A stretch of 60,305 nt of DNA, the filler included, from Candidatus Zapsychrus exili (GTDB lineage: Bacteria; Omnitrophota; Gorgyraeia; Zapsychrales; Zapsychraceae), in assembly GCA_030765585.1 (NCBI GenBank). It is 4 parts of 4 records of this genome, joined end to end, with 100 filler letters (N's around TTAATTAATTAA, not from the genome) between each part and the next. Parts side by side here need not be neighbours in the genome. Positions count along the whole stretch, not along the records: positions 48,218 to 60,305 come from JAVCCJ010000029.1; 3 more parts are not named here. The stretch is one strand, 5' to 3'. Position 1 is the first letter of the stretch; each line of letters begins with the position of its first letter. This document shows positions 14,925-60,294 of this stretch, one piece after another. The position numbers were made by a program, and so were the translations under genes. The notes under the pieces were generated by a model, which saw nothing but the letters and a program-made list of their open reading frames with translations, made no database searches and had not been told where the DNA came from.

Positions 14925-14969
14925 AGCATTTAATGCCTTGTCTTAATATCTTGGTTATTTATCATTTCT

Positions 14970-15813: not shown

Positions 15814-16121
15814 AAAAACAAAAAGCTCCGTATTTGTTTTACAGAGCTAATATACATGATTTTTTATGCTTTGAAAATTTACTAAATCAATCTTATTTTT
15901 GGAGGATTTCAGTATGCTGAATTTGATGATTTTTAGAAGGTTTTCAGTAGAGCGCTGTTATGGTAGCGGGCCGAATTGAAAGACACGCAACTTATGAAAT
16001 AATACTTGACTAATTTCTCAACTTCGTCTAAAATCAATTCAGTTGTATGAACTCCACACTTGTAATTTTCAAAGTACGCCTCACACTAAACACAGTCGAA
16101 GGTTAGAACGGGAGAATTAAT

Positions 16122-16700: not shown

Positions 16701-16849
16701 GTAAAAAATCAATCGCTATTTTAGGATCAGAATTTAAAGCCCACCAAGTTTAATCTTAAAAAAGTCAATTTCTTATTATCAGATTGATGCACTAATATTT
16801 TTTAACACCTTTTTTCTTATATAAGCTTATCGGGAGACACAACACCTAT

Positions 16850-19348: not shown

Positions 19349-19542
19349 AAATCCATCTTTCCAAAATAAAAAAACTTCGCGATAAATTATGCGAAGATTT
19401 TGCTTTTGACGTATAGGGTTTTCATTTACTGAACTCGAGACTTTAAACTTACAATTTAATTTTAGTCTTAGTTAGATATTTTATCAATAATTGAGCCTTA
19501 TCTTATTCGCAATCAATTTATTCCATACATTTTAAATTATTT

Positions 19543-21288
19543 TCATAAATAATAACTGTCATTCATCTTTTCATCATGAATAAATGATGTAATTATAAAG
19601 CTAACTTCGCCTTCTTCCATTTTAATATTTTCCATCTGCCCCAGCCTAGTATTTATAACTTCACATTGTTCTTGCGTAATATAAAAGCGATGTTCACCAA
19701 GCCAATGTTTTGCTTTAATGCAATCTTCTTTAACATTTGATTGTAAAAGTGTTACCATGCCTTCAACCTCAGCCTTATCAATCTTAGGAAAAAGCTTAGG
19801 GAATACATCAACGTGCCCATCTTCTGACACAACAATACATATGGTTGGATGTTCATTTGAAGCAATATAACGTATGGCTGAGTTATATCTTGCCCCCCGC
19901 GATTGATCCCCCTCATCCGTAGCTTTACCATCTAAAATAACACCTATAGCATAACAAACCCCCTTTGAATCGATCAAAATAGCCCCATCAATACCACTAA
20001 GACGCGAAACAAGCTCAGGAGTCACTTCAATTGGATTCACCATTAAACACTGCTTTTTTAATCTCTCAGCTTCTTCTTTGGCCCTGGTTGAGACTACAAT
20101 CATTGTCCCTTTTTTTTGATCTATTGCCGCTGACACCACACTCCAAATACGATTTTCAGCATCTTTTAATATTTTTTGAATTATACGCTTTATATCTGAA
20201 CGAAATACCTCTTCATTAAGTCGTTTTAGTGGCAACCATGGAATTCCGTATGAAACATTCATTAATAAGTTGTTGTTATAATACATTTCCCATCTATATC
20301 TTCCAGTAAAATCTATTCTGAAAACATTCTCCATGTTTGAAGATTCAAGAGTCCCAAATCCTGTAATTCCATTATTGATCCCAGGAAATTTATCGCCCCC
20401 CCGACACACACAAAATAAGTCTTTACCGCTAATTTCAATCATCTTTCGAGCTAATTTGTGATTATGGATTGGTATTTTATCCTTTAGTTGCACTTGAAGC
20501 TTGACGTTTTTTTCTTTTGAAGAGCAAAAAAGCATCCTCCCAATCGCTGCTTCTCCTTCATAAGGAAGCGAAGAAACAATATTTAAACTATCGAAAATAT
20601 CTCGCAAGATCAGATCTCCTGTACAAAGAGTAATGGCATAACAAAAATCATCCCCAGCTTTTCGTAAAATAGAAGTTTTCTCTTTAGGAAATGTATTAAA
20701 AAAACGCCCAGGTTCTTTTTTTTCAAGCATTTCGGTCGCTTCTTCTAAAAGACACAAGATTACATTGTGCAAAATCCCAATAGAAGATTCATACTTTTCA
20801 AACAGTATCGGCTTTGGAAGATGTGGATATTCAAAAACCTGAGCTCGGTTAAATTGTAAAACAGGAACAACATGATACCCTTCGACTCTTGTCGGCAATC
20901 CACAAAAGGAAATAGTTTTATTTTGAGAATCATATAGAGATACAGCTTCTTTCACAGATTGGCGTACCGACTTTTTTCGAATATTTTCTGGCATATCACG
21001 CATACTAGGCTCATCGCCATAAATAATTGAATGATCAGGATGTTCCTTATAAATAGCCTCAGTTCGCTTTGCACATTCAAAAAATATTTTTGGATCCCAC
21101 CCTTCATTTTCCGGCTCAACACATACTGGATAATCGTCTTTTTTTTCAGGGATACGAACACCAATAAGAAGCGCTTTTGGCTCCAGAGTTGGCGCAATTG
21201 ATTGGATAACGTCTTTTGCCTTAACTTCTAAAGATAGCCTGAAATGAGGTTGATATCCCCACATAAATAATTTGATTGCCCTGCTCAC
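19543..21288 (-). CDS. Diadenylate cyclase (DisA_N/DAC)-domain protein with long N-terminal sensor-like region
   Basis: IDGAILID, ILDG, RGARYNSA (variant of RHR), VSEDG. Confidence 0.85.
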   Translation of the reverse strand: MSRAIKLFMWGYQPHFRLSLEVKAKDVIQSIAPTLEPKALLIGVRIPEKKDDYPVCVEPENEGWDPKIFFECAKRTEAIYKEHPDHSIIYGDEPSMRDMPENIRKKSVRQSVKEAVSLYDSQNKTISFCGLPTRVEGYHVVPVLQFNRAQVFEYPHLPKPILFEKYESSIGILHNVILCLLEEATEMLEKKEPGRFFNTFPKEKTSILRKAGDDFCYAITLCTGDLILRDIFDSLNIVSSLPYEGEAAIGRMLFCSSKEKNVKLQVQLKDKIPIHNHKLARKMIEISGKDLFCVCRGGDKFPGINNGITGFGTLESSNMENVFRIDFTGRYRWEMYYNNNLLMNVSYGIPWLPLKRLNEEVFRSDIKRIIQKILKDAENRIWSVVSAAIDQKKGTMIVVSTRAKEEAERLKKQCLMVNPIEVTPELVSRLSGIDGAILIDSKGVCYAIGVILDGKATDEGDQSRGARYNSAIRYIASNEHPTICIVVSEDGHVDVFPKLFPKIDKAEVEGMVTLLQSNVKEDCIKAKHWLGEHRFYITQEQCEVINTRLGQMENIKMEEGEVSFIITSFIHDEKMNDSYYL

Positions 21289-21305
21289 AATGATCCTTTA
21301 CTTTC

Positions 21306-21525
21306 TTAATTACCGCAATAACAGTCTTTCATCTGATTAATTCTCTGCCTGGAGGCATACCAAAAAATCAGCTCATATATTCTGCTGCTTTTTTCTTTAA
21401 ATACAGTCCGCTCATAGGTCTCAGGCAAATCTTTATCTAAGACTTCTTCTATTACTGTCTTAACCTTTCCCTTGTCTGGTTGTCTTTACACCAATCCTGA
21501 ACCAATACAGCAGGCCTCTTGAACC
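21306..21525 (-). pseudogene. hsdR: C-terminal remnant of a type I restriction R subunit (HsdR)
   Basis: Manual translation VLVQDWCKDNQTR / (frameshift) KVKTVIEEVLDKDLPETYERTVFKEKSSRIYELIF resembles HsdR C-termini. Confidence 0.6.
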
Positions 21526-21544
21526 AAGGGGACGGTTCTATTTT
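21526..21544. repeat. 19-bp inverted repeat, right copy
   Basis: AAGGGGACGGTTCTATTTT. Confidence 0.9.
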
Positions 21545-21575
21545 TCTTTTAACACTTATTCAGAATGTCAATTAA

Positions 21576-22157
21576 TTAGGCGTCTTCAACTAAATCAGAA
21601 ATCGACGGATACCCAACAAGTTCTATATTATCAGGTTGTTTGTCTTGTCTCATTTTCGGCTCAATTAGTTTTGGTAAATAAGTATACACAGGACTATCAA
21701 CTGTTGGCTTGTTTAAAATCACTTTCATTTTCTTTTTTAATTCTTTTTTGAATCGCTGTGCTTCAGTGACACCAATATCTTTCCCCAAGTGTTCGTAAAA
21801 ATTAATCACTGTATGGTCTACATCAAACGGAGGATCAACTTTCTTTTCTGCAATAACTATCGTGCTAAAGGGACGAAGAGCGTGCCTTACTCCTAATTCA
21901 TACAAAGCATTAGCATTAAGTGTAGAAATGTCTGCAATAACAATGTCTGCCTGATAAATCCAATCATACATAGGTTTATCGATACTACCATTAATAGCCA
22001 CATCATTAGCTCTAAAACATTTCATTTTTAGCGTCTTACACACAGGTTTGATAAGATTTTGATAAGTTTTGTCTAAATCAAAAGTTATTCCTTGCTTATA
22101 ATCAGTTTTTTGTCCATATCCCATGATTACAAAGCAGGTTTTTTGTTTTTTATTCAT
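21576..22157 (-). CDS. Nucleoside 2-deoxyribosyltransferase-like/deoxyribohydrolase domain protein, probably truncated
   Basis: CFVIMGYG, ADIVIADISTLNANALYELGVRHALRP. Confidence 0.75.
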   Translation of the reverse strand: MNKKQKTCFVIMGYGQKTDYKQGITFDLDKTYQNLIKPVCKTLKMKCFRANDVAINGSIDKPMYDWIYQADIVIADISTLNANALYELGVRHALRPFSTIVIAEKKVDPPFDVDHTVINFYEHLGKDIGVTEAQRFKKELKKKMKVILNKPTVDSPVYTYLPKLIEPKMRQDKQPDNIELVGYPSISDLVEDA

Positions 22158-22229
22158 ACCTCACATCCTTCGTATCAAGCATACCCTAATTGCCTATATA
22201 CTTCTGGCTTGTAATAATAATTCCCAGAA

Positions 22230-22766
22230 TCATACCTTATCACTTTTTTCTCTATTGCATTTCTCACAAAGTAATTCTACATTCCTGACTGTATTGCTAC
22301 CCCCTTTTACAACTGGTATTATATGGTCAAATTCGAGATTTTCTCTACTACCACATTTAACACATTTACCGCTGTCTCTTCGCCATACAGTTTCCTTAAT
22401 TTCATCTGGTATTCTCTCTCTTCTATTCTTTAGCCCATATTCTTTTTCAAGTAATTTTTTTCTGACTTTTCGTCTTATTTTATCCTTTCTTATTCTCTCT
22501 TTTTCCTTCCTTTCTATCTCTAAAACCTCTTCTTTCCTATCTGCCCTCTCCTGAGATAATCGCTCTTCCTGAGTGAGTGGATGTCCCAACCTAATCATAC
22601 CTATAAAGAAACATAAGGAAATCCAAAGGATAACCAAAACCAAAAGGAATACTTCTATCCCATAAGGCACTGTAAATAGAGAAATAACAAGTGCAATGTA
22701 GAATGCTTTTCTCGCTACTGAAATAGGTTGTTTTTTGGTGTGGTCCTTCTTAATTTCTTTTACCAC
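22230..22766 (-). CDS. HNH endonuclease with N-terminal TM helices
   Basis: RDSGKCVKCG..LEFDHIIPVVKGGSN..N..LCEKCN. Confidence 0.9.
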   Translation of the reverse strand: MVKEIKKDHTKKQPISVARKAFYIALVISLFTVPYGIEVFLLVLVILWISLCFFIGMIRLGHPLTQEERLSQERADRKEEVLEIERKEKERIRKDKIRRKVRKKLLEKEYGLKNRRERIPDEIKETVWRRDSGKCVKCGSRENLEFDHIIPVVKGGSNTVRNVELLCEKCNREKSDKV

Positions 22767-22933
22767 CTTCTATATTATGCTATACCTTTGCTTAACTTTT
22801 TATATTTCTCAGATTCTTGAAATATCTTATGTCTTTTCTGTGATTTATTCAATTCTCTTTCTAATTTTTTAAGATTTATCCACTCTCTCATATTTAATCA
22901 TCCTAATGCTTCTTATGCTGAACATAACATTCT

Positions 22934-23653
22934 TCACACACCAACTAACTGTGGCATTTGATCCCAATATTTGCCTTCTAGTTTACGTCCAGTCTTCTTT
23001 TTATTTGTTCCACCCCATTGCTTAAAGAAAAAAGGTACTTTTTGTTTTACGCATTGATCTCGAAGATTCGTCACCCACTCAGGATCCATATATCGAGCTC
23101 CTGGGCCTGATTCTCCACCGACGATCGCCCAATCAATATTCTTTAAATTAACTTTCCCTACTGCTCCAATAAGCGGTTCAAATGAAATAAACTTTACATT
23201 CGCCTCTGTATACCTTAAGCAATCTATCCGATCCTTACACTTAGCGTTCTCAACGCTAACACCCATCCAAATGTTTTTTCCCCACGTCAATTCATCACTT
23301 AACTCTGCCAAGCGATCCGCTCTTTTGGTTAGGATCTGAAACGTGTGAATAGACGCTCTATTCATAACATCAAAAACCTTCTTGATGAAAGCTTTTGATA
23401 CCTTGCGATGAAAAAGATCACTCATTGAATTTACAAAAATGGTTTGAGGCTTCTTCCATTTAAGCGGTAATTCAAGCACATGCTCATGGCACATCAACTC
23501 AAAACCATTGCGATAGTTTACTTGTCCCATAGCCTGCAACCTTTTTGCCATTCGTTCAGCGTAGCAATTCTTACAACCCGAACTAATCTTTGTACATCCA
23601 GTCACCGGATTCCATGTTGATTCCGTCCATTCAATTTTCGATTGTGCCGCCAT
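22934..23653 (-). CDS. Phage Gp37/Gp68 family (DUF5131) protein
   Basis: IEWTESTWNPVTGCTKISSGCKNCYAE, NSMSDLFH, GGESG, FFFKQWGG. Confidence 0.92.
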   Translation of the reverse strand: MAAQSKIEWTESTWNPVTGCTKISSGCKNCYAERMAKRLQAMGQVNYRNGFELMCHEHVLELPLKWKKPQTIFVNSMSDLFHRKVSKAFIKKVFDVMNRASIHTFQILTKRADRLAELSDELTWGKNIWMGVSVENAKCKDRIDCLRYTEANVKFISFEPLIGAVGKVNLKNIDWAIVGGESGPGARYMDPEWVTNLRDQCVKQKVPFFFKQWGGTNKKKTGRKLEGKYWDQMPQLVGV

Positions 23654-23655
23654 AA

Positions 23656-24780
23656 TTACACTCCTATGAATTTAATTAGAGCACCTTTAGTGACAGTATT
23701 ATTTCTTTGTTTTGGTTTTCTTTGCATTTCAATCAAACCTTCATTCTCCAATCGCATCAAGGCCTCTTTTATTGTTTTTTTAATACCATTTGTATTTACA
23801 TATGCCCATTCTTCAATATCATCATAAACAATGGTTTCTTGCTCTTTGCAATAGTCTTTAATGCGATTACGAAGATTGATTCTTTCCGGATCCTCAAACA
23901 ATGACATTTGCGCAGTCTTAACGCCAATAGCTTCAAAACGATATTCAACATCGCTAACTCGTGCCATGTTATCTTTCATAACTTCTAATGCTTTAAAATG
24001 CTGCGATGCATGAATAAGATAATAGCGAGGACGAATCCCTTGCCCAGGAGTATTAATTCGAAAAGGCATAACATACTTCGATTTTCCTATCTTTTGAAGA
24101 TTTTTGCAATATAAATTTATAAAGAATAGCTGGCGTTGTTCAGCATTTTGTGTTTTTTCTACATCTTTATATTCATCAGTACCAAACAAATCCAACATAG
24201 ATTGTTCTGCATGACCTTGCTCCCAAAACCGAACTACATCGTAAACCATATAGTTTATAAAAATTTCGCTCCTTGGATAGGACAAGATTCTTTTCAATGT
24301 TTGCATTGAAAAGCCCGAATATCCAAACGGATCTACAAAAAAGAACATGGGATAATTTTTAATAGCATTCGTATCAATTTCATCTAATATTGCATTAATT
24401 CGTTGCTCAAAATCACCCTGATGCACTTGCCAATATTGGTTATTAGTATTAATTCTGTTAAGAATATTCCGCAAGGACTTGACACATTCTTTATCCTTAT
24501 CTATGCAGAATATAACAACTTTTCTTTGCTTATCATCTACGATTAAATCATTCGCGATATTTGCAACCAAAACAGGAGAACCTGCGCATTTAGAAGTTTT
24601 TGTAGTGTCACAATAATATTCGCCGGGACCACAAAATCCATCAAAATAGGTAACAAGTTGTGATTTACCATAATTCTTGCTTGCACTAAATAATATTTTC
24701 ATCCAAACCGCAATATATTGTTTAAGTAAATCATGTTTTATTTTTGTCGGTTCTTCTATAATCCAAGGTACATTCATCAT
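23656..24780 (-). CDS. tcmP: Three-Cys-motif partner protein (TcmP; methyltransferase-like with wHTH)
   Basis: KHDLLKQY, YFDGFCGPG, FFFVDPFG, SEIFINY; 2 bp from the DUF5131 gene. Confidence 0.85.
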   Translation of the reverse strand: MMNVPWIIEEPTKIKHDLLKQYIAVWMKILFSASKNYGKSQLVTYFDGFCGPGEYYCDTTKTSKCAGSPVLVANIANDLIVDDKQRKVVIFCIDKDKECVKSLRNILNRINTNNQYWQVHQGDFEQRINAILDEIDTNAIKNYPMFFFVDPFGYSGFSMQTLKRILSYPRSEIFINYMVYDVVRFWEQGHAEQSMLDLFGTDEYKDVEKTQNAEQRQLFFINLYCKNLQKIGKSKYVMPFRINTPGQGIRPRYYLIHASQHFKALEVMKDNMARVSDVEYRFEAIGVKTAQMSLFEDPERINLRNRIKDYCKEQETIVYDDIEEWAYVNTNGIKKTIKEALMRLENEGLIEMQRKPKQRNNTVTKGALIKFIGV

Positions 24781-24908
24781 CTTCCCAATACAATTTTTCT
24801 TTCATCTTGCATAAGTTCATATGAGTCAAATGCAGGTTCATTGATTTCTTTCTAGCAAATCCAAACTCCTTCTTCTCCTTGATTATCTGTTTTCGGCAAC
24901 TCTAATTC

Positions 24909-25841
24909 TCACAGTTTTAAACTCTTAATGTGCTTCCTTAAGGATTTTTCTAGCCTAATCATTCCTTCAATCATATCGTCTTGCAATTTATCCCATTCTT
25001 CCTTATCATTTAATCCTGCATAGTCAAATCTTTTGCTAATACGAGAGGCTCTTCTATCATCAAGTCGCTCCCATTTAAGTTTGCCTCCGAAATCATTTTC
25101 GATTTCATTTTTCTGGGAATAAAGTTCATCAAATATCTTCTTATTTTCTTCGTTGTTTTCTTTCCCGCGATCAATATATAACTCAACTTGTCCATGTTTG
25201 TACGTTATCGCATAATTAAATCCTAATCCTCTTTTTCCAGAACCAGCACCAATCCATGAATATATTGATGGTGATATATTGGCATGAAGAGATGTTTTCT
25301 TCTTGCTTTTTTCTAATAAAGTTTTCCAAAATTCATGCCTCTTTTTATGCCTCCCAGCAAGTTCTTTCTTTTCTTCACCCACAATCTCAGTCTTTTCACT
25401 AGGACCTGTTATCACAGTAAATTTGGCAGCTGGTTCAGAGTTTCCAATACGATAGGCCTCAATCTTGACTAAATAAAAACAAACATCACTCCCTGTTTCA
25501 TTCAACCATTGTATTGCAGTCTCATGTTCAGGGCGTGGTTTACTAGAAATCCATATAGCTGTTTTGGCTTCAAGATTCGACACATAGGTAAGCATTTTTC
25601 CAAGATGATCATGGTCAGTTTTTTCAAGCTGGTTTTCTATAAGAACTTTTTGTCCTGATCCATCCTCTGCCGTAATATCCGCAGAAAAAGAACCAACATT
25701 CTTTTCTTTCTCATCCGCTGTCAAATCCATATCCAACTCTTCACCTAAAACTTCTAAGTTTTCGTACAACCAAGAGGTAAAATCTTTAGCCTCATTTCTC
25801 CAAACTTCCCTCAATGGAACTCTTTCAATTTTCCCAATCAT
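24909..25841 (-). CDS. DUF4268-domain protein with N-terminal PD-(D/E)xK-like nuclease domain
   Basis: EAKDFTSWL, ADI, IENQLEKTDHDHLGK; C-terminal FW...LxWERL. Confidence 0.85.
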   Translation of the reverse strand: MIGKIERVPLREVWRNEAKDFTSWLYENLEVLGEELDMDLTADEKEKNVGSFSADITAEDGSGQKVLIENQLEKTDHDHLGKMLTYVSNLEAKTAIWISSKPRPEHETAIQWLNETGSDVCFYLVKIEAYRIGNSEPAAKFTVITGPSEKTEIVGEEKKELAGRHKKRHEFWKTLLEKSKKKTSLHANISPSIYSWIGAGSGKRGLGFNYAITYKHGQVELYIDRGKENNEENKKIFDELYSQKNEIENDFGGKLKWERLDDRRASRISKRFDYAGLNDKEEWDKLQDDMIEGMIRLEKSLRKHIKSLKL

Positions 25842-26038
25842 ATTTTTATCCCTTTTTTTACCACTAATTTTATATATAAAAACTCCATGATGACCATTCG
25901 AAAATACTCAGAACTCCCTTCAATCGCAATACTTAATTCTTTTGCTTAAAACAGGCTAATTTCTCTTAGTCCCCATCCAAATATTAGTAACTATATTCAT
26001 CTATTGCTTTTAAGGAATTGTCTTTTATCTTTTGTTTA

Positions 26039-26659
26039 TTATTGAGATTTTCCAAGACTTTTTTCTTTTTTGCTATCTTTTAGATTAAATGTATAACTAA
26101 AATCATCCTTATTAATTATTTGATATTCCATATTTTCCACGGTATATAATTTTTGGCTAACAAAATGGGCTGGGATATACTTAATAACAAAGAATTTAAT
26201 GGTATCATTAAAAACGTGATCTGGGGAGCCAATGCCTTTTAAAGCGATTATATTATTTTCGATAACTAAAGTGGCTGGACTAAAAACCCCGCGTTCATTT
26301 GATACCTCTACACTATTTTTTTCTGGAACATTCTCTAATTCAAAAAATATTATAGCTCTTTCATTAGAGAAACCAGGGTACGAGAAAACTTTAACTCTTT
26401 TATTTAAATCCTGATTCTTAAATTTCTCAAACGTAAATTCTTTGGGGGAATTAACGGAAACATCTATTTTATTTGCAGTTATTCCTCCGGATTGATTATA
26501 ACTAGTAACATAAACTTTCTTTTTGGTATCATTTTCGCCAATATTTTTGATTTCTTTTTTTGGATAAACAAATATAAACCATGACCAAATAATAATACCT
26601 ACAATATATGCTATTATCCGTAGAGGCAAAGACAGATTGATTAAAAATTCATTTAACAT
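26039..26659 (-). CDS. Hypothetical membrane-anchored protein
   Basis: N-terminal TM helix, VTSYNQSGGITA motif, AGGAG RBS. Confidence 0.6.
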   Translation of the reverse strand: MLNEFLINLSLPLRIIAYIVGIIIWSWFIFVYPKKEIKNIGENDTKKKVYVTSYNQSGGITANKIDVSVNSPKEFTFEKFKNQDLNKRVKVFSYPGFSNERAIIFFELENVPEKNSVEVSNERGVFSPATLVIENNIIALKGIGSPDHVFNDTIKFFVIKYIPAHFVSQKLYTVENMEYQIINKDDFSYTFNLKDSKKEKSLGKSQ

Positions 26660-26711
26660 TTGTTGATCTCCTTGATAAAATAGAGATAGACACCTTTTCC
26701 TTTTTTACAAT

Positions 26712-27334
26712 TTATAAAACACAAACAAATTCACCAACAATCTGAAAATCACTTGCCGAAACATTTTCAAGAACTATATTATCAAAATCTTTATTATCTG
26801 GCGAGAGAATTATTCTTTTATGCTGCCATGTTCCATCATCAAAATATTCTTTTTCACTGTGATACCTCTTTATTGTATACGTTCCCTGTGATTCAGGATC
26901 TCGAAGTGCATTGCAATTAGCTAAAACAATTTTCCCTTCCCTGGATCCTCCCCGTTCTTTTCTAAATACACACCAACTATTATCAGGAATGGTGGGCTCC
27001 ATAGATTTTCCCACAACTTTCGCAATAAACATATTTTCATTAATTTTTATAGAGGCTTTAACTTGCATCCACCCCAATTTTTCAACAAATTCTTCTTTTC
27101 CAAAAGCGGTCGCAACGGCCTCAAGAGAATAAGCCGGCAAATACTCAGTAAATTGAAGTTTCCCAATAACTGATTCCTCTATCTTTATGCGCAATTTGTC
27201 ATCATGTGAAATAAGGTCAGAAAAATATTGTGGTTCCTTTGTTAGAGCGGGGGCAGCTTGAATGCGCGATCTAAAAAAAGATTCCGTTTCTTTATCGACA
27301 AAGCATACATAGCACCCCTTCAGACCCCGCGTCA
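26712..27334 (-). CDS. C-terminal part of a DUF2075-type helicase-S24 peptidase fusion (5' end cut by contig end)
   Basis: Frame stays open to the gap: TRGLKGCYVCFVDKET, then GKSMEPTI...YTIKRY (Ser-Lys dyad). Confidence 0.75.
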
Positions 27335-48550: not shown

Positions 48551-48577
48551 TGGCGGAGAGGCTGGGATTCGAACCCA
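48551..48577 (-). repeat. att direct repeat (3' 27 nt of tRNA-Ser)
   Basis: TGGCGGAGAGGCTGGGATTCGAACCCA identical to 60202-60228. Confidence 0.95.
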
Positions 48578-49361: not shown

Positions 49362-51143
49362 TTACATATCTTCATCGCTATCAACTTCTTCGTCAGCCTC
49401 ATAATCCAAATCAACCTGTATACCCAAAAGTTTTGCTTCATGAGATTTATCAGTTAATTCTAAAATTATCTTTTCATGAATTATAGACTGGTATTCTGTA
49501 TCAGTTAATTCAGTTTTAATTGAATCAAGCGTATCTTGATTAGCAGAAATGATATATTGTACATTATTATCTTTCGTATTTTCAAAAGCAAGTTTAAATA
49601 ACGTGGCTCTTTGTCTTGGATCCATGTCAGCAAGAAGTCTTCCATCATGAAAAATAAATTTTATGTTATGATTATGACCACACTTCATCAGAATCCAATC
49701 AAAACAAAATATTTTAACTTCACTGATACCATCACCTGTATCGCCTTGGATTTTAGCAGTAATATCAAACCTTAATCTATTTTGACCATCATTATTCTTT
49801 ACTTCAATACCTGCTTTTATGTTTTCATAAAACTGGTCAACAAATTGCTTAAATAAAGAGATATTCTCATTCAATAAAGGTTTAATTTCTTTCAAATAAT
49901 TATTTGTTGAAATATTCTCCTTACCAAGATCGATTTTTATGCTTTCTAGCTCATTTTTATACTGATTAGTAAGCTCTTCATAAGTTTTAAGCTTTGCTAA
50001 TTTAATCTCAAAATTGTTTTTTTGACTATTTAAAGCTGAATATACGTCTAATGCTCCATGCGTATTTAAATATTGCAACCTCTGGTCTAGTTCTTTACCT
50101 AGGGCGGTTATGGTCTTTTCAACTTCTAACAGTTTGTCTTTTAGCAACTTCATCTCCCCCGACAAACGCTGCTCTCTACTTATTAGCAATCTTTTATTAA
50201 ACGTTTCAACCTCACTAACTTTTTTAATAACCATATCATTCAGGCTTAACTTAGCATCTTTATATAAATCTAGAATCTTTTTCTTTGAAATATCTGGTTT
50301 TATTTCAAGACTTCTCTTAATATTTCGAATAGCATTATTTATCACTGTGGCTTGATTTTCGTAAATTCTACTCTTTGCAGATAATTCATCTGCTTCTTTG
50401 CGAATTTTATAAAAATCCTCTGCTACAATAAAGTTTGTAATTTTATGTAATAAGTTAGCAATTTTATTCTCTAAATCCACAATTTCTATATCTATATTCT
50501 TACTCTTTTTTGAATCCGTACTTTCTTCAAAAAATGATTTAAGAATAGGATCTTTCTCTATATTCTTTTTAAGCTTATCTACCTTATCAGCATTAATTTT
50601 TAAATCATATTTTTTAGATATTTTTTCCACGTCTAACCCTAACAGGTAAGCATTGTTAATCAAACGTGGATACTCTCGTTCTTCATAAACAAATATATCA
50701 TAACTACTATAACTACTTCTTTTGGGCCTAATAAATCTTGACATCAACGATCTATAGGTTAGGTATTTTTTCTTTTGGTCTAACGAAAATACCTTAACTT
50801 CTAAATATCTTTTGAATTCCCTTAATGTGTATTCCTTCCCATTCATCGTTAGTAATTTCTGATTATTAGTAGTCCTAGTTACAGTAAACTTCTCATCATC
50901 AATCATAAAATCTAATGTAAATATCCAGCCGGATAATTTTTTTTCAAACTCTGCGATTGGATTGCACCCGAAACAAAAATGTATGAGACGAATAATCAAT
51001 GATTTACCAACGCTATTATATGTTTTTCTTTTATTATCAACTGCTTCACTTTCTTTGCGACCGAGTATTATAGATATTCCACTTTTATTAAATGTAACAG
51101 TATGAAAACTTTTTTTATTTGCCCTTAATTCAATTAATCGCAT
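49362..51143 (-). CDS. ABC/SMC-like ATPase (DUF2326; LmuB-like) of an ABC three-component/Lamassu system
   Basis: NSVGKS Walker A, long coiled coil, GDG signature region, FIFHDG..DMDPRQ, QYIISAN. Confidence 0.88.
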   Translation of the reverse strand: MRLIELRANKKSFHTVTFNKSGISIILGRKESEAVDNKRKTYNSVGKSLIIRLIHFCFGCNPIAEFEKKLSGWIFTLDFMIDDEKFTVTRTTNNQKLLTMNGKEYTLREFKRYLEVKVFSLDQKKKYLTYRSLMSRFIRPKRSSYSSYDIFVYEEREYPRLINNAYLLGLDVEKISKKYDLKINADKVDKLKKNIEKDPILKSFFEESTDSKKSKNIDIEIVDLENKIANLLHKITNFIVAEDFYKIRKEADELSAKSRIYENQATVINNAIRNIKRSLEIKPDISKKKILDLYKDAKLSLNDMVIKKVSEVETFNKRLLISREQRLSGEMKLLKDKLLEVEKTITALGKELDQRLQYLNTHGALDVYSALNSQKNNFEIKLAKLKTYEELTNQYKNELESIKIDLGKENISTNNYLKEIKPLLNENISLFKQFVDQFYENIKAGIEVKNNDGQNRLRFDITAKIQGDTGDGISEVKIFCFDWILMKCGHNHNIKFIFHDGRLLADMDPRQRATLFKLAFENTKDNNVQYIISANQDTLDSIKTELTDTEYQSIIHEKIILELTDKSHEAKLLGIQVDLDYEADEEVDSDEDM

Positions 51144-51378
51144 TATAAATTTTTCCTTGATCATTAATATCTAAGGCCCCAACGCAAAATAAATAATCTA
51201 GAGCAAAAACTATATCATCAAATCCATGATGAGCTGGAAAACGTTTTGAATTATTTATTTTTGAGTAATCCCACCACAGCTCATCTATTGTTTTTGGTGT
51301 ATCCAAAAACTTTAATAAATAACTTCCTAAACCAAATAGAGATTCTGACATAGATATATGCTTTGATGGTAAAATCAA
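51130..51378 (-). CDS. ABC-3C middle component (LmuC-like)
   Basis: ILPSKHISMSESLFGLG..TIDELW..ALDYLF; TTG start overlaps the upstream TGA. Confidence 0.8.
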   Translation of the reverse strand: MILPSKHISMSESLFGLGSYLLKFLDTPKTIDELWWDYSKINNSKRFPAHHGFDDIVFALDYLFCVGALDINDQGKIYNAIN

Positions 51379-52310
51379 TTTTTTTCCTTTAATGGGGGAG
51401 TTTGAAAGATATCGCAGCACTCAAAATAATATGCCATTAAAACTAAAACGGCATCTTGTACCGGCCTAGTGCGCTTGGGACTAGCCTTTGTTAGAATATA
51501 AAAAAATACAGCATCGCTTTTATTTATATCGTTATTAACTTCCTTTACACCATTAGAATAATAATTAACAAATATCTCCTTAATGTCACTCTTCAAACTA
51601 ATACTGTTCTTCTCGAAATAATCTTTAATAACATGATTTTGATAATTGCCCTGATTGAGCAAGCTTGCAACACTTTCACTTAAATTGTTAAATACTATTT
51701 TCTTATCAAAGTCTGGATTCTTAGGAATCCTTTCTTCATTATAGGCAAACTTCATGCCCATCAAATGATTTATTACTTCATTCATTGCGCCAAAATTAAC
51801 ATCTGATATATTTAAAGGATCAGGCAAAGGTCCTAAAACACTGACAATTTGTTCATCGGAAAGCTCAAAAAATACATCTTCAAGGTTCTTACTTAGGAAG
51901 GAACTACATTTTATTCCAACATATTCCTTTTCAATTTCTGAAAGCTTTTCTTCTAAAGAATGGTATGTGCCTTTATATTTATCGTTTAATGCAAAAAAAT
52001 ACATTTTAATTGGGCTAATTTTATTCCAATATTTATATAATCCCTTAAAATCAACAGTTAATTTCTTAATAGTATTGTTTAAATTATTAGAACTATTCTC
52101 GGGGGCATATACTTGATAATATGTTCCCGATTCCTTGTCAAAACCATCATTCTTTCGGTCCCCATATTTGCCTTGTGGCTTGACAGGCTTAAAGTTTTTA
52201 TTTGCATTCTGCATGATATTAACGAAGAGATTTTCATATTCTTGACCATCACTCATATAGATCTTTGGGAGAAATAATAAACGTGCTATATATCTCTCAC
52301 TACTATTCAT
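51375..52310 (-). CDS. ABC-3C effector (LmuA-like): restriction-nuclease-like domain plus CTD
   Basis: GQEYENLF, GDRKNDGF..YYQVYAP, KIVFNNLS, YYFECCDIF. Confidence 0.85.
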   Translation of the reverse strand: MNSSERYIARLLFLPKIYMSDGQEYENLFVNIMQNANKNFKPVKPQGKYGDRKNDGFDKESGTYYQVYAPENSSNNLNNTIKKLTVDFKGLYKYWNKISPIKMYFFALNDKYKGTYHSLEEKLSEIEKEYVGIKCSSFLSKNLEDVFFELSDEQIVSVLGPLPDPLNISDVNFGAMNEVINHLMGMKFAYNEERIPKNPDFDKKIVFNNLSESVASLLNQGNYQNHVIKDYFEKNSISLKSDIKEIFVNYYSNGVKEVNNDINKSDAVFFYILTKASPKRTRPVQDAVLVLMAYYFECCDIFQTPPLKEKN

Positions 52311-52398: not shown

Positions 52399-52490
52399 TG
52401 GCGGAGTTGGTTGAATTCGACCCCCAGCTTTCATGACATCTTTATTTATATTGTGATAGGGCGAAACGTTAACGCGTTATGATTGTGATA
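52399..52490 (-). repeat. Degenerate copy of the att-end region 48551-48646
   Basis: TGGCGGAG..TTCGA.CCC..CAT(G/A)ACATCTTT.TTTATATT..AGGG..AACG.GTTA.GATTGTGA shared in order. Confidence 0.8.
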
Positions 52491-52510: not shown

Positions 52511-53032
52511 CTAAGGCATGGGCAAGTCTAAGAAATCTAATGGAAGCTCATTAAAGAAATAGTAGCAGCCAACCGATTTCACATAATCTAATACATCCTT
52601 ATACTCTTTCTTTTTAAACCAGTCATTAAGAACATAAACATATTTGACAGATATATTTAAAGAAGATAGTAATTTTTTGTATTGCTTATTCTTAAAATCG
52701 CAAGTCTGTAGCTTCTCATCAACAGAACCGGCCACTTCTTGAAATTTAATTTCTATAATAAAGAGTGTCTTATCTTTTATTATTAAAATCGCTTCATCAG
52801 GGAGTAGTTTTTTTGAAATGATAGCTTTAAAATCAATGTCATTTGGCTCTAATAAGTTTTTATATAATTTGTGCTTTTGATATAATTCCGCGACTTTCTT
52901 ATCTTTATAATAAATAGTATCATCTGAAACTTCATAATGGGAAAGAGAAGAAATCGCTTTCTCAAGCGATATTCTAGACTCAAACCTTAACCCCGTTATT
53001 GTTTTGCCTCCACCCTTGCCTCCTTTTATCAT
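52511..53032 (-). CDS. PD-(D/E)xK restriction endonuclease-like protein
   Basis: LLPDEA..IIEIKFQEVAGSVDEKL; ATGA overlap with the MTase. Confidence 0.8.
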   Translation of the reverse strand: MIKGGKGGGKTITGLRFESRISLEKAISSLSHYEVSDDTIYYKDKKVAELYQKHKLYKNLLEPNDIDFKAIISKKLLPDEAILIIKDKTLFIIEIKFQEVAGSVDEKLQTCDFKNKQYKKLLSSLNISVKYVYVLNDWFKKKEYKDVLDYVKSVGCYYFFNELPLDFLDLPMP

Positions 53033-53874
53033 ACAAGTACCGCCTTCGGTTTTCTATCACGTTTTTTCATCACGTTGGCATTAAGTAAGTTAAATCTTTT
53101 TATCGATAAATCAAGGTAAGATTTTTCATTATCTATACCAATAAAATTTCTACCATATAAATGAGCAACAAGTCCGGTTGTGGAACTGCCCGTGAAAGGA
53201 TCTAGCACAAGTTGTCCTTTGTTTGTGCTCGACAAAACAATTCTTTTGAGCAAATCTTCCGGTTTTTGAGTGGGATGCTTACCAAATGTTTTTTCAAATG
53301 GTTTAGGAGTGTTAATACTCCATACAGAACGCATTTGCTTATTGGGTTTCTTTATAATGTCTCCCGGCCATTCGCCGTTGCGCATAAGATTGTAATTAAA
53401 TACATGCTTAGCTTTTTTATTTTTTCTGGCCCAAATTATTGTTTCATGGCTTGCGGTAAAAAAGCGGCAGCTTAAATTGGGGGCAGCGTTAGGTTTAAGC
53501 CAACTTATATCATTTAATATATGATACCCTGATACTTCCAACGCGTATCCGCAGCGATAAATTGAATGATAAGTTCCGCTAATCCAAATTGTACCATTAG
53601 GCTTTAAAACACGCCTACACGCGTTTATCCAAGCTATATGAAACTTTAAATCTTCATCTAACCCTTTGCTTTCGTCCCAACTACCTTTATTAACAGAAAC
53701 TCTTTTGCCAGCATGGCAAGTAAAACCGCCATTGGATAAATTATAAGGGGGGTCCGCAAATATCATGTCCACTGATTCTTCGGGCAAATTATTCAAAGAA
53801 TCTCTGCAATCATCTAAATAAAGTTCAAAGTTATCGCTTTTAAAGTATGGCTTAACCTTATTACCTTTTATCAT
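53029..53874 (-). CDS. Beta-class N6A/N4C DNA methyltransferase (DpnIIB-like)
   Basis: FADPPY precedes HPTQKP and DPFTGSSTT. Confidence 0.93.
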   Translation of the reverse strand: MIKGNKVKPYFKSDNFELYLDDCRDSLNNLPEESVDMIFADPPYNLSNGGFTCHAGKRVSVNKGSWDESKGLDEDLKFHIAWINACRRVLKPNGTIWISGTYHSIYRCGYALEVSGYHILNDISWLKPNAAPNLSCRFFTASHETIIWARKNKKAKHVFNYNLMRNGEWPGDIIKKPNKQMRSVWSINTPKPFEKTFGKHPTQKPEDLLKRIVLSSTNKGQLVLDPFTGSSTTGLVAHLYGRNFIGIDNEKSYLDLSIKRFNLLNANVMKKRDRKPKAVLV

Positions 53875-53947: not shown

Positions 53948-55003
53948 TCAAGTATTATCTAATTCTTGTAGTTGTTTCACATCCTCTTTCATATGCACAG
54001 TTGGCAAATGAGCATATTTCATTGTATCACGAATATCAGAATGACCCAATAGCTCTTTTATTTTATATATATCCACTCCTTTCTTCAGCAGGAACGTTGC
54101 ATATGAATGTCGAAGCTCGTGCAATCTGGTGAGGCCTGTGATATTTGCTCTCTTTGCTATTCTTATCAAGACTCGCCTTGGCATTTGTTTTGAATATGGC
54201 CCAAATAGGACTGAATTGTTTTTCGGTAGATTTGTTAATACCCGCTTAAGATTATCATGCATAGGAATTATTCTTTCCTTGGCTTTACCTGTTTTTTTAT
54301 TTATTCCTTTGGGTCGAAAGTTTTCTTTATTGCGTATATATATTAGCCCTCTTTCGAAATCTATATCGCTCCATTCAAGACTAAGAAGCTCTGATTTTCT
54401 TAATCCGGTATGTATAAAAGTGTAGAACATAGGGTAAAATTCTTTAAATTCGTTTTTGCAGATACTTATAAATTTAGTGTATTCTTCTTCTGTTAATACT
54501 TTAATTGGTTTTGAATCAATTATTTCAACCGATTTTAAATTTTTAGCTGGATTTTCAGATAAACAATCCCATTCTACTGCTTTACAAAAAAAGGCCTTTA
54601 AAACAATGACATGATTTTTTAGTGTACAGGTTTTAGCTTGATTTAATCTATACTGTTTATAGTTTTCAAGCAGTTTGGGCGTAATGTCTGATAGGTTTTT
54701 GATATTAGGATAGTCCTTGAGAAAATTAGCGAATGTTTTTAGAATAGAGGTATAACTACGAAGAGTGTGGTCACGGCGATTAATTTTTATCCACTCTAAA
54801 TAATCAGAAACAAAGGCATGTACGGATTTTTTTAAGAAAACTCTGCTGCCTCCGAAAAGTAAAGCTTCGGATTCTTTTCGAATCAGGATTTCTCTGGCAA
54901 GCGATTTCGAAGCAGTACCAGAGCTTTCTCTTACCCTTCGCCCTGCTGCTGAATAAGCCAACCACCAGCAAGGGCTATCTTTTCTTTTGTAAACTACGCC
55001 CAT
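53948..55003 (-). CDS. Tyrosine recombinase/integrase
   Basis: HTGLRKSE, K, HELRHSYAT, LLGHSDIRDTMKYAH. Confidence 0.95.
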   Translation of the reverse strand: MGVVYKRKDSPCWWLAYSAAGRRVRESSGTASKSLAREILIRKESEALLFGGSRVFLKKSVHAFVSDYLEWIKINRRDHTLRSYTSILKTFANFLKDYPNIKNLSDITPKLLENYKQYRLNQAKTCTLKNHVIVLKAFFCKAVEWDCLSENPAKNLKSVEIIDSKPIKVLTEEEYTKFISICKNEFKEFYPMFYTFIHTGLRKSELLSLEWSDIDFERGLIYIRNKENFRPKGINKKTGKAKERIIPMHDNLKRVLTNLPKNNSVLFGPYSKQMPRRVLIRIAKRANITGLTRLHELRHSYATFLLKKGVDIYKIKELLGHSDIRDTMKYAHLPTVHMKEDVKQLQELDNT

Positions 55004-55012
55004 ATCTTATTG

Positions 55013-55216
55013 CTACCCTGCTATTCTTACTGGCGGTTTTGCTAATACCGGCTGTTTGAATGATTCAGCGAACTTGTTTAATTCTGATAATCGAAAAAGT
55101 ATCCTGCCTCCTACTTTGTAGCAGGGAATCATGCCTTTATATCTCCAAACATACAAGGTTGATTCTTTCACATCCAAAAACTTTGATACTTCACTTATGC
55201 TTACAAATCTTTCCAT
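55013..55216 (-). CDS. Excisionase-like HTH protein
   Basis: EVSKFLDVKESTLYVW..IPCYKVGGRILF; directly upstream of the integrase. Confidence 0.85.
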   Translation of the reverse strand: MERFVSISEVSKFLDVKESTLYVWRYKGMIPCYKVGGRILFRLSELNKFAESFKQPVLAKPPVRIAG

Positions 55217-55365: not shown

Positions 55366-55460
55366 GTTCTCACCTCCTTACTTAACCTATTTGTAAAGTT
55401 GAAAGGCAAAAAATATATGTTACTTAACTTATTTGTCAAGTTTCAAATTAAAAAAATATC

Positions 55461-55652
55461 CTAGAGAAGATCTTTTGCTTTGCATCCTACCACCCTTGCT
55501 ATTTGCTCAAGCTTTTTGATCGATACCATCTTCCCATTCTCAATCTGGCAGATGTAACTTTCACTAACTCCAACCTTTGTTGCAAGCTCCAACTGAGTTA
55601 AATTCATCTGCACTCTTTTCGCCTTTAACTTACTTCCGATATCAATTGTCAT
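55461..55652 (-). CDS. XRE/Cro-family HTH regulator
   Basis: LTQLELATKVGVSESYICQIENG. Confidence 0.9.
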   Translation of the reverse strand: MTIDIGSKLKAKRVQMNLTQLELATKVGVSESYICQIENGKMVSIKKLEQIARVVGCKAKDLL

Positions 55653-55682: not shown

Positions 55683-55711
55683 ACTATATCATTACTTAAC
55701 CTATTTGTCAA
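55683..55711 (-). promoter_or_regulatory. Promoter with overlapping operator upstream of the XRE gene
   Basis: TTGACA-17 bp-TATAGT with extended -10 TG; overlaps ACTTAACCTATTTGTCAAGT. Confidence 0.8.
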
Positions 55712-55847
55712 GTATTATTTTTTCTTTTCCTCGTTCAATGATGCCTTGAAAAAATATAAACCCACGATTAATAATTATGTAAATGCGCTATTATTATGTA
55801 ATTAAAGATATCTTGTTCTTAAAATTTAGTTTGAAATATTAGTTGTA

Positions 55848-56645
55848 CTATTTTGAATTAAGTTCTGGAATTTCTATTGTTTTTTCTTTTTCCTCACCTT
55901 TTATTTCTTCCTCAAGTGTTTTAGGGAAATCAGATAAATGTTTTTCTGCAGAATGACATGCTTCAGTAGCTTCTTTTAATAAATCACGAGATAGCTCTTC
56001 AATCTTTTTTTCTTCATTTGGATATACCACAATCTGCTTTGGTTCTCCAATGCCACCAGGATTTGTTAATATAGCGTGTTCTAAAGTCCACACTACAGCA
56101 AATACACCTTCCTCAATAGACGGCAATCTATCTGGCCAAAAAATTCTTCGTATAAAAGCTAAAAAGGGGTCCGCTATATTTTGCCCACTTCCTATTGCTA
56201 CAAAAGGTAAATATTCTGTCACCTCTTCCGGTGAACATTGTTGATCAAATTGGAAAAGACAAAGATGTCCTGACACAGGTACTGCCAAAACAACATTAGA
56301 AATAGCACTTTGCAATGCAGCTCCTCCTATAGCACCCCTTGCTACTGTTGCTGCTTTTAACTCGTCTTCAGCGTGTTTCCATAATGCACGACGTAAAATA
56401 GCCATAGCTTCGTGCTTCTCCTTGCCCGACAATCCTCTGTTCTTCCACAAACTAGCAATTTCACCATTAAATCGTTGGCCAAGCCCAACAGGCCCAGAAA
56501 CACCTAAAACAATTGAGTCGGCTATAATCTGCAATTTTTTTATAGTCTGTGATACAGTTTTCTGGCTTATGTTGCCTAAGGTGGCCGCACCATCTGACCC
56601 CATCACTATTCCATCCTTGCATTTAATCCCAATAATAAGCGTCAT
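55848..56645 (-). CDS. Proteasome-beta/HslV-like Ntn (threonine) hydrolase
   Basis: M-T1LIIGIKCKDGIVMGSD17, KKL, VSG and AIGSG motifs; no propeptide. Confidence 0.8.
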   Translation of the reverse strand: MTLIIGIKCKDGIVMGSDGAATLGNISQKTVSQTIKKLQIIADSIVLGVSGPVGLGQRFNGEIASLWKNRGLSGKEKHEAMAILRRALWKHAEDELKAATVARGAIGGAALQSAISNVVLAVPVSGHLCLFQFDQQCSPEEVTEYLPFVAIGSGQNIADPFLAFIRRIFWPDRLPSIEEGVFAVVWTLEHAILTNPGGIGEPKQIVVYPNEEKKIEELSRDLLKEATEACHSAEKHLSDFPKTLEEEIKGEEKEKTIEIPELNSK

Positions 56646-57082
56646 AACTGACCTTTAAAAACGCTGTTTTTACTATAACTTGGAAATTCTTTATATATAC
56701 TCCTAATTAATTGTGGAAATGTCAAATGCACAATCCATTGAATTACTTTATGTATATATTCATATATTTCTCCGGAAATTTCTTTCTTTATTTTTTCTGT
56801 TGCTTTTAGTCCCTTAAGAGTAATCGAGTATTGCTCAAATCTTTTTCCACTAAACATATTAATATTGATAAGCCCTTCTGAAGCCAAATTTTCAGCATCT
56901 CTATATATATCAATACAAAATGGTCCATAATCATAGGCTATAAATTCATAATACTCTTTTTTTTCAAAAATCATGGGCATTTTCTGCCTTAACAAAAATA
57001 AACTTTTTTGAAGCTGAACAGGAGTAAGCCCCCTGTCTTCAGCGCAACTAGTTACAAGCAAAATCCAATCTTTTTTTTCCAT
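56642..57082 (-). CDS. SocA/Panacea (DUF4065)/YwgA-like winged-helix protein
   Basis: QLQKSLFLL..YEFIAYDYGPF..IYRD; ATGA overlap with the protease gene. Confidence 0.7.
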   Translation of the reverse strand: MEKKDWILLVTSCAEDRGLTPVQLQKSLFLLRQKMPMIFEKKEYYEFIAYDYGPFCIDIYRDAENLASEGLININMFSGKRFEQYSITLKGLKATEKIKKEISGEIYEYIHKVIQWIVHLTFPQLIRSIYKEFPSYSKNSVFKGQL

Positions 57083-57150: not shown

Positions 57151-57600
57151 TTATTTTATACGAAGATCATTCTTTGCTATTATTTTAAAATCATGCAAGC
57201 ATTTCTTTGTATATTTTAAATCATGTTCAATAACGCTCCAAAGAGAATTTTCGTTCCAACTTAATTCTGGTCTGTTTTGATAAGTTTCAAGTGCTTCTAC
57301 TGCTTCATTGGTTATTATAAATGAGCCGACATCTATTGCTCTAGCAAGTTCACGCAATGCCGTTTTATACTGTTGCCATAATTCATTTTCTCTTTCTGGA
57401 GATAATTCAGAGTGTTCATATTCCGCGTTAAGCTTTTGTTCACAATAGTTTTTTAAATGATGGATAGCATCAATAATCTTTGCATAGGCTTCGGCTTTTT
57501 TCTCCCACCATTTTTCTGTACGAAATTTTCTTAAGGAAAGTTGCACAGTAATAATTACCATGAGGAAAGAAATACATATTTGTTTAATTGTTTCCCACAT
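57151..57600 (-). CDS. Hypothetical helical protein with N-terminal hydrophobic helix
   Basis: EKWWEKKAEAY motif; 149 aa. Confidence 0.65.
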   Translation of the reverse strand: MWETIKQICISFLMVIITVQLSLRKFRTEKWWEKKAEAYAKIIDAIHHLKNYCEQKLNAEYEHSELSPERENELWQQYKTALRELARAIDVGSFIITNEAVEALETYQNRPELSWNENSLWSVIEHDLKYTKKCLHDFKIIAKNDLRIK

Positions 57601-57747: not shown

Positions 57748-57778
57748 AACATAGCATAACTTAACCTATTTGTCAAGT
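57748..57778 (-). promoter_or_regulatory. Promoter with overlapping operator upstream of the 57600-55848 genes
   Basis: TTGACA-17 bp-TATGTT with extended -10 TG; same 20-bp operator. Confidence 0.7.
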
Positions 57779-58737: not shown

Positions 58738-60045
58738 TTAATACCCTGCTACTTCTAAAACAACTGATACGCAGCCCTGAACCCGGCGACAAAACACGCG
58801 CATTTGATGCTCTGAAAGTGGCGCTGATAACTTATGCACTATTTCGTTTGATGGGAAAAATGTCGCCTCGGTAAGCTTTATATCTTGTTCTGCCATTTTT
58901 GAATATGATCCAAGGGCAACCTCTCGAAATATATATCGAAGCCGCGAATTGCGGGTAAATTCTCCATCTTTTATATCATCTTCTGGATTTTCTAGAAATG
59001 ATTTAAGATTCTCATCAGGTGCCAAATAACGCAGAAGATGATCAAGTAGCGTTCTGAAAGACACCCCAGCATGACGAATCCATCCGTCGTGACCTGACCT
59101 TATTGCCGTTATGCCTTCTCGATATACGTCAGCTAATTTTGGATTCACTGCTTGTAAACGCGTCTCAACCTCATCCCCTAATGTATCAAGAAAGCTATCT
59201 GTGCTTTTAACACTAAGTTGATCTAGGGCGCATTCGTCTAGCCGATGAAGAACAGCAGCAGCAGATATAGCTGCATATGGTTCAATTGTAGGCGCCTTGA
59301 AGAGCAAGCTACTCGTATCAACCAAGAAAGAATTATCCATTTCATTATACACGGAGGCTGATAGCAAATTAAGCTGTGTAGTTGCCTCATTCACGTCAGC
59401 AAAATAAACACCTGCACTTTCCATAGGTTGAGTTAAAATCTCAGCATTTATCCGTGATGTCGCCAAAGAGGTATCAACTAAATTTTTGACCGTAGATATT
59501 TCATTTTGCAGTGTATTGCCTAGCGAAATAAGGCTATCTTGGGATAATAAGTTTATAGCGCTTGGTTGATCTAGAAGTGGTAACTCAGCCAGTTTCTCCA
59601 TGCTAAAAACGTTTACTCCATTATAATCAACAACATGAAGATGTTCGATATGATTGCAAACACTACTGGCCATTGATGCTGTAGTGGCAAAAATTGAGCC
59701 CGTTGCGTTAACAGCTATGTTAGAAGAAAAAGGGAATGCGTTCTGATTGTCCAGTAAAAGCGCTGACGGCGCGCTTGCAATGTTTGCAAAATTATCAGCA
59801 CATGACACGACAGATGAAATATCGTTACTTAGTATAGAGAGATTGTCTTTCAAATCAAACATCGCGCTAGCTGGTGCACTAGCACATCTAAGATCCAAGC
59901 TCTTCTCTATCATAGACGTTACGTTGGAAATATTTTCAGTAACAACATTAACTTTGTTGGTAAGCGTGCTAATGGAGGAAGTCCATATATTGGGGACTAC
60001 AAACGCATCATTATAACTATCCACAAAAGACCTCCTTAAAATCAC
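58738..60045 (-). CDS. Protein with C-terminal pPIWI-associating-nuclease-like domain
   Basis: RHAGVSFRTLLDHLLRYLAPD..TRNSRLRYI; S/A/N-rich N-terminus; start uncertain. Confidence 0.6.
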   Translation of the reverse strand: MILRRSFVDSYNDAFVVPNIWTSSISTLTNKVNVVTENISNVTSMIEKSLDLRCASAPASAMFDLKDNLSILSNDISSVVSCADNFANIASAPSALLLDNQNAFPFSSNIAVNATGSIFATTASMASSVCNHIEHLHVVDYNGVNVFSMEKLAELPLLDQPSAINLLSQDSLISLGNTLQNEISTVKNLVDTSLATSRINAEILTQPMESAGVYFADVNEATTQLNLLSASVYNEMDNSFLVDTSSLLFKAPTIEPYAAISAAAVLHRLDECALDQLSVKSTDSFLDTLGDEVETRLQAVNPKLADVYREGITAIRSGHDGWIRHAGVSFRTLLDHLLRYLAPDENLKSFLENPEDDIKDGEFTRNSRLRYIFREVALGSYSKMAEQDIKLTEATFFPSNEIVHKLSAPLSEHQMRVFCRRVQGCVSVVLEVAGY

Positions 60046-60201: not shown

Positions 60202-60294
60202 TGGCGGAGAGGCTGGGATTCGAACCCAGGGTTCCGCTTATAACGGAACAACCGCTTAGCAGGCGGCTCCTTTCAACCACTCAGGCACCTCTCC
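60202..60294 (-). tRNA. tRNA-Ser(GCT)
   Basis: GGAGAGG acceptor stem, CT-GCT-AA anticodon loop, long variable arm, encoded CCA. Confidence 0.98.

Follow-up and report, generated by a model that had tools for sequence, protein, structure and literature searches.

What does a proteasome-type hydrolase do when it is encoded apart from any proteasome, directly behind a small protein with an antitoxin-like fold? Two genes of Candidatus Zapsychrus exili (GCA_030765585.1) raise this question. They lie in the 60,305-nucleotide stretch of DNA that was analyzed as a whole (the window), and the original prediction took them for a SocA/Panacea-like protein translationally coupled to a threonine protease, that is, either a toxin-antitoxin pair or an adaptor with its dedicated protease. 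Both open reading frames, of 146 aa (57082-56642) and 265 aa (56645-55848), are present on the minus strand as claimed, and they overlap:

55848..56645, minus strand: proteasome-beta-like Ntn hydrolase, 265 aa, predicted toxin/effector (Pfam PF00227, AF2, fold matches, conservation)
56642..56645, minus strand: ATGA stop/start overlap (sequence read directly)
56642..57082, minus strand: small winged-helix protein, 146 aa, predicted antitoxin or sensor (ORF call, sub-cut-off Pfam match, AF2, Foldseek)

The junction between the small gene and the protease gene reads TTATGACG, and judging from these letters the ATGA overlap is likely to couple their translation. A contig of identical sequence from run X1, which may be the source sample, spans the junction.

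The small protein carries the predicted LQKxLFL/YGPF-type signature (PVQLQKSLFLL...YEFIAYDYGPF). Its SocA/Panacea-like label stood in part: SocA_Panacea (PF13274) is the best Pfam family, with a score of 21.7 bits that stays under the gathering threshold of 25.7, and a Panacea match at E<=0.01 was obtained for 15 of 119 relatives among the matches listed. Membership in SocA itself was not borne out (17.1 bits vs an NCBIfam cut-off of 190), and a SocB-like neighbor is absent. The AF2 model (pLDDT 92) and Foldseek agree on a winged helix, and the closest solved fold is the C-terminal domain of DarG (7yk3; Foldseek E 1.9e-4; VIA Z 11.4, rmsd 4.5, 140 aligned residues, 14% identity), followed by PadR/MarR winged helices at Z 8-9. 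As modeled, then, the small protein is a Panacea/YwgA/DarG-C-terminal-like winged helix. Among the matches listed, G53 and P54 are found in 121/121 sequences and F55 in 118/121, Q25, K26, and F29 are invariant, and a GPV-like Panacea motif is present after the conserved central helix. The recognition helix carries a net acidic charge (mean -2.2); PadR helices are usually basic in charge. The C-terminal domain of the antitoxin DarG binds its toxin (PMC13368585, in part), and Panacea domains neutralize diverse toxins by binding and have been proposed as sensors (PMC8832971, PMC10440598, both in part).

Weaker relatives of the small domain occur as DUF488 fusions (PADLOC PDC-M19), with HD-hydrolase partners, and as middle components of ABC-three-component systems; five distant ones (L191, L214, L219, L188, and L204) either come after an HD phosphohydrolase gene or form a fusion with DUF488 (PDC-M19). 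L191 matches the C-terminal part of the PADLOC DarG model (E 3.8e-7), and the small-domain families are therefore linked by sequence. An HD-YwgA pair exists in B. subtilis as well. Distant archaeal relatives carry a PadR annotation, and of four archaeal plasmid records that match at a distance, the two examined have no protease. The C-terminal NSVF of the small protein was considered as a proteasome-activator-type tail and rejected, since a similar segment lies within DUF488 fusions that have no protease partner.

The larger protein passes the Pfam Proteasome family (PF00227) with 36.5 bits against a cut-off of 22.4, and structure comparison bore out the predicted proteasome beta fold: the AF2 model (pLDDT 94) matches proteasome-beta-type folds in Foldseek at E about 1e-12, with Anbu (VIA Z 21.0) level with beta subunits (Z about 20) and an rmsd of about 3. 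The catalytic residues that had been read from the sequence are in place, as a Met-Thr start, D18, K37, G51, and G152-S153-G154. Among the 121 intact non-redundant homologs in the matches listed, whose median identity to each other is 38%, Asp17, Lys33, and Gly47 (G51) are each kept in 121/121 and Thr1 in 120/121; the exception, L021, lost its Met-Thr to an insertion sequence. The homologs all start with Met-Thr, so a propeptide is absent, as had been claimed. Ser129 and Asp166 sit around the N-terminal amine in proteasome-like Ntn hydrolases. In the same set of listed homologs, Ser129 (S153) is kept in 106/121 and replaced in the other 15 by Ile, Leu, Ala, Asn, Arg, or Cys, while the Asp166-like position is variable (N61/A21/S20/H10). 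Since Anbu was moreover inactive on standard substrates (PMC5666114, in part), broad proteolysis by the enzyme is not assured. The model has helices at 77-106, 109-112, and 220-255, and by alignment to 9f9p_I it contains about 22 extra residues as a helical insertion after H2, which is shorter in distant members. The long C-terminal helix is followed by a Pro-rich P-x-P tail, and this ending, not the charge mentioned in the original prediction, is what is conserved there. There is no alpha subunit or proteasome/HslU-type ATPase within the element, in agreement with the earlier reading, and no other PF00227 gene or HslU above the cut-off in the genome (96% complete). Against the 20S proteasome/HslUV families it scores 32 and 19 bits, where the cut-offs are 224 and 158, and none of the PADLOC models matches the protease.

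To follow the pair in other genomes we collected 542 protease relatives among 3006 candidates and took 79 loci from genomes, 80 from metagenomes (the best 80 each of the matches listed), and 4 from viral contigs. The pairing proved to be conserved when sought from either gene. Among the matches listed, the small gene lies directly upstream of the protease in 127 of 141 non-redundant protease-seeded loci; in the remaining ones it is nearby or rearranged (6, with L058 convergent), cut off by a contig edge (6), or missing (2). The ATGA overlap (-4) recurs in 19 of these 127 listed adjacent pairs, and most others are spaced by -1 to +12 nt. Seeding with the small gene, we found a proteasome-like gene or its remnant downstream in 19 of 25 loci at or above 85 bits (four loci of the seed genome and one at an edge are not counted), and a proteasome-like gene in 0 of 32 loci below 85 bits. 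In seven of the 19 (L196-L202) the proteasome-like partner is more divergent (L196: hhalign 98%, 24% identity); the small proteins of these loci form a more divergent clade, and three of the proteasome-like partners are truncated or frameshifted. The trees of the two proteins co-vary (Mantel r 0.70, null maximum 0.21), which, on FastTree trees, is indicative and expected of any linked pair. Among the matches listed, 57 labelled rows cover 15 phyla with 23 changes, a distribution that is clustered and far from vertical. The profile of the small protein matches 3 of 301 genomes of its own phylum, with the pair in 2 of the 301, and in another phylum 2 of 401 genomes are positive; the module is rare and patchy.

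Neither clustering of 5401 ORFs from the 163 loci and the window nor a scan of 148 of the 223 nearest neighbors, with the other 75, mostly short or dubious ORFs, dropped, returned a conserved third gene. The protease had no match in plasmids and cultured phages, and the 2 hits among 8000 longer-form candidates scored for a gene fusion were a frameshift join and a spurious extension, which makes the search weak evidence on fusions. The top enriched words upstream of the pair are the Shine-Dalgarno sequence and TTGACA, and a search of the regions ahead of 119 small genes gave no shared palindrome or operator (the top count was 7, against 4-9 in shuffles). The two genes make up a mobile operon that is conserved and self-contained. 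Among the matches listed, 77 of the 148 scanned neighbors bear a Pfam label, and a hand count assigns 15 of these to transposase, integrase, or phage genes and another 17 to restriction, HNH, TIR, SIR2, HEPN, NYN, or similar genes. The enrichment near defense genes depends on the control, for which we used the 41 other genes of the window, 28 of them labelled: mobile or defense neighbors are frequent among the matches listed (32/77) against a strict count of 1/28 (p 9e-5), but less clearly so against a generous one of 6/28 (p 0.07), which is high because the control takes in another island. Many loci lie amid housekeeping genes. Taken with the makeup of the neighbors, this indicates a mobile pair that frequently, though not in every case, has defense genes close by. 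One transposase family, IS1595-like where scanned, is present in 12 loci (L003, L004, L005, L008, L014, L019, L061, L073, L075, L076, L103, and L108); it often adjoins the pair and may move it.

In Ca. Z. exili the pair sits on a 12,088-base contig (48218-60305) that extends from a tRNA-Ser through to a 27-nt att repeat and carries the following features:

60202..60294, minus strand: tRNA-Ser(GCT), the integration site, with the 27-nt att core at 60202-60228
57748..57778, minus strand: sigma-70-like promoter (TTGACA-17-TATGTT); a palindromic operator-like site (57759-57778) overlaps it
57151..57600, minus strand: 149-aa gene, hydrophobic N-terminus, PHROG 17948, probably co-transcribed with the pair here
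55380-55399, 55422-55441, and 55694-55713, no strand: copies of the palindromic site around the HTH gene (sequence search)
55461-55652: Cro/C1-type HTH gene, upstream of the excisionase and integrase
55013-55216: excisionase
53948-55003: integrase
48551..48577, no strand: distal att copy, 27 nt, 100% identical

Two elements may be stacked here, to judge from a third, degenerate att copy at 52399-52425. In run X2, 48578 is joined to 60202 on one contig, a weak junction (depth 2.6, a summed contig figure; side 28). As had been proposed, the 149-aa gene probably shares a promoter with the pair, the sigma-70-like one at 57748..57778, which would drive all three genes at this locus. The suggestion that its product is the toxin or substrate of the pair was rejected, as a search of 227 other loci gave no homolog at E<0.4; on sequence, the gene is a local passenger outside the module. 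The 20-nt palindromic site has 4 copies in the island against 0.03 expected and is found at none of the other loci, which points to local regulation, probably by the HTH protein of the island. Its copies overlap -35 boxes and would probably place the promoters of the HTH gene, the excisionase-integrase genes, and the cargo under a single regulator (55461-55652).

The pair has the anatomy of a type II toxin-antitoxin system, being a conserved, coupled two-gene operon that is mobile and patchy. We favor the toxin-antitoxin half of the original prediction over the adaptor-plus-protease half and read the pair as type II toxin-antitoxin-like, with a predicted threonine-protease toxin restrained by a small antitoxin or sensor; we give this reading about an even chance. 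It draws on the gene with the antitoxin fold coming first and being coupled, on there being two genes only, on relatives that bind toxins, and on the acidic helix. In the mechanism that we infer, which takes in binding, proteolysis, toxicity, a trigger, and a defense role, the enzyme would be armed by removal of Met1 alone, with no propeptide and no ATPase, and the small protein, translated first and coupled, would hold it inhibited. The enzyme would be set free once the element is lost or the small domain senses a trigger, for instance a phage protein, and it would then cut one or a few host proteins and arrest growth.

Complex prediction weakly suggests that the small protein may bind the enzyme directly. 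The heteropair scored 0.38 against 0.00 for the best control, with at least 92% contact agreement between runs and a partner pLDDT of at least 86; of 157 solved complexes, 116 reach this mark, as do 2 of 215 mismatches, and passes at 0.60 or under comprise 18 of the 157 solved complexes and both passing mismatches. Covariation between the two proteins was not above that of shuffled pairings. Gene decay shows no significant asymmetry: the protease is damaged and the small gene intact in 11 loci, vs 3 loci for the reverse (p 0.40 when set against gene length), and L102, which came to light later as a fourth locus of the reverse kind, weakens the asymmetry further. Damaged small genes stand beside an intact protease in L036, L102, L114, and L127, and L117 has an intact protease with no small gene within 4.6 kb upstream; these are all single assemblies that may contain errors or be silenced. 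Two partnerless proteases (L076 and L134) have no Thr1 start. The small gene persists without the protease in L175-177 and L178, or fused in L167 and L185, and it is therefore unlikely to be a toxin. Particularly, L167:3449-4219 and L185:1276-1944 are C-terminally extended or fused copies of the small domain with no protease, and L178 is a viral contig with two stand-alone small-domain paralogs and no protease.

The evidence also has to be read against an adaptor or sensor with a dedicated protease, where the small protein would deliver a protein of a foreign or rival element to a latent, host-harmless protease, or activate it. SocA itself carries a Panacea domain and acts as a proteolytic adaptor (PMC8832971, in part), the five loci where an intact protease has a damaged small gene next to it or none at all speak for such an arrangement, the predicted binding fits it equally, and the relaxed Ser129 and Asp166 positions could mean that activity depends on the partner. 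However, SocA feeds an unfoldase machine, ClpXP, whereas the enzyme of the pair has no ATPase; the PanA proteins tested so far acted independently of ClpXP and Lon (PMC8832971, in part), and no conserved substrate gene was found nearby, so we regard this reading as unlikely, if by no means negligible. The same five loci would suit a reversed polarity of the RosmerTA type, in which toxicity would lie with the small protein (as a DNA mimic, for example) and the protease would be the antitoxin, and protease antitoxins such as RmrA are known (PMC10440598, in part). Against it stand the intact small genes that have no protease (L175-177 and L178) or lie beside a broken one (11 loci), which leave it very improbable.

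The PadR/MarR-like folds that come next in the structural match (Z 8-9) and the PadR annotation of the distant archaeal relatives raise the possibility of a repressor with an inducing protease, similar to ImmR/ImmA, in which the winged helix would bind DNA and be cleaved by the enzyme on a signal. Yet the recognition helix is acidic, the upstream regions of the 119 small genes share no palindrome (7 vs 4-9 in shuffles), conserved regulated genes are absent, and the sole operator-like site at the locus is specific to the island, which has an HTH gene of its own. This reading is improbable. Least probable of all is a narrow transpeptidase or amidase resembling connectase, which would ligate or process the small protein or a non-protein amide. 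Connectase illustrates that ligases occur among proteasome homologs (PMC8665760, in part), Ser129 is replaced in 15 of the 121 listed homologs, and the helical insertion may block ring assembly, but the model retains H1/H2, which connectase misses, and matches connectase less closely (Z 11.7) than it does beta subunits and Anbu (about 20).

The pair lies outside formal Panacea, SocAB, DarTG, HslUV, and Anbu membership and is type II toxin-antitoxin-like by anatomy. It resembles PanAT (PMC8832971, PMC10440598, both in part) in its two genes with the antitoxin-like one first, the related fold, the G-P-hydrophobic motif, and its mobile and patchy occurrence, but its small protein scores below the Pfam Panacea cut-off; a term search of the supplements of these two papers gave no mention of proteasome, Ntn, HslV, or Anbu, nor did the main texts yield the word proteasome. 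With DarTG it shares the fold of the DarG C-terminal domain at 14% identity, but it has neither macrodomain nor DarT and its partner is an Ntn hydrolase. Like the type VI system SocAB, it ties a Panacea-like domain to proteolysis; unlike SocAB, it has no SocB and encodes its own protease, whereas SocA uses the ClpXP of the host. On the enzyme side, the fold and catalytic centre are those of Anbu, HslV, BPH, 20S beta, and connectase, but identities are 15-23% and all NCBIfam cut-offs are missed. The missing propeptide and long C-terminal helix recall Anbu; the lack of HslU or an alpha subunit sets the pair apart from HslV/20S. The Anbu operon carries a transglutaminase, an ATP-grasp, and an Alpha-E protein (PMC5666114, in part), and none of these partners is among the 148 scanned neighbors or the conserved clusters. 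By its described features the closest counterpart is PHI (Fuchs 2021, PMC8665760, in part), with Thr1/Asp17/Lys33/Gly47, no propeptide, an H1/H2 helical insertion, a long C-terminal helix, and a scattered distribution; there was no match to the listed representatives among the 9 accession sets found. A more distant copy of the winged-helix domain is shared with PADLOC PDC-M19 (a winged helix-DUF488 fusion plus partner) and with HD-hydrolase/YwgA-like pairs, whose partners are different and whose distant loci have a proteasome-like gene in 0 of 32 cases.

Consistent with the original claim that no named system has this pairing, no published description was found in a literature search in which most subscription papers were outside the scope and the PanAT/NetFlax tables label many proteins as hypothetical, so that an unnamed entry is possible. 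The module thus joins two known folds, is strongly conserved, and is apparently undescribed. The paper on PHI described 22 new families of proteasome homologs, whose genomic context suggested no function (PMC8665760, in part); one orphan family now gains a near-obligate partner gene. If the enzyme is a toxin, a proteasome-fold protease would join the effectors of toxin-antitoxin systems, the Panacea/DarG antitoxin fold would extend to the control of proteases, and the pair may yield a partner-gated, sequence-specific protease or ligase tool. More tentatively, and with somewhat less than an even chance, the loci may represent a widespread undescribed class of toxin-antitoxin or anti-phage systems, with a stand-alone proteasome-fold threonine protease as effector, a Panacea/DarG-like sensor as switch, and one sensor clade joined with two or more divergent proteasome-like subfamilies; were this so, conflict systems would be a main job of orphan proteasome homologs.

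Finally, several other genes in and around the island deserve mention. An ABC-three-component module (CTD10, MC6, and a DUF2326 ATPase; PADLOC PDC-M68, Lamassu-like) occupies 49362-52310, between the degenerate and distal att copies, and is followed at 52511-53874 by an N6/N4 methyltransferase gene overlapping a 173-aa PD-(D/E)XK-like gene, probably a type II restriction-modification pair. Adjoining the tRNA, a 435-aa protein (58738-60045) is of low complexity in its N-terminal part and carries a pPIWI-associated nuclease domain (PF18165) at its C-terminal end. An identical tRNA-Ser recurs in the same genome (G000 C117:1-1300), there with another integrase-like gene behind it, and a copy of the island integrase, 90% identical, lies on another defense-rich contig (C88:4934-5796), so the site appears to carry alternative cargo in the population. 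Elsewhere in the window, positions 9935-27194 form a second island-like stretch with PLD, an excisionase-like HTH, DUF4238, DACNG/DACNH-DAC, HNH, DUF5131, DUF4268, and an S24 peptidase.
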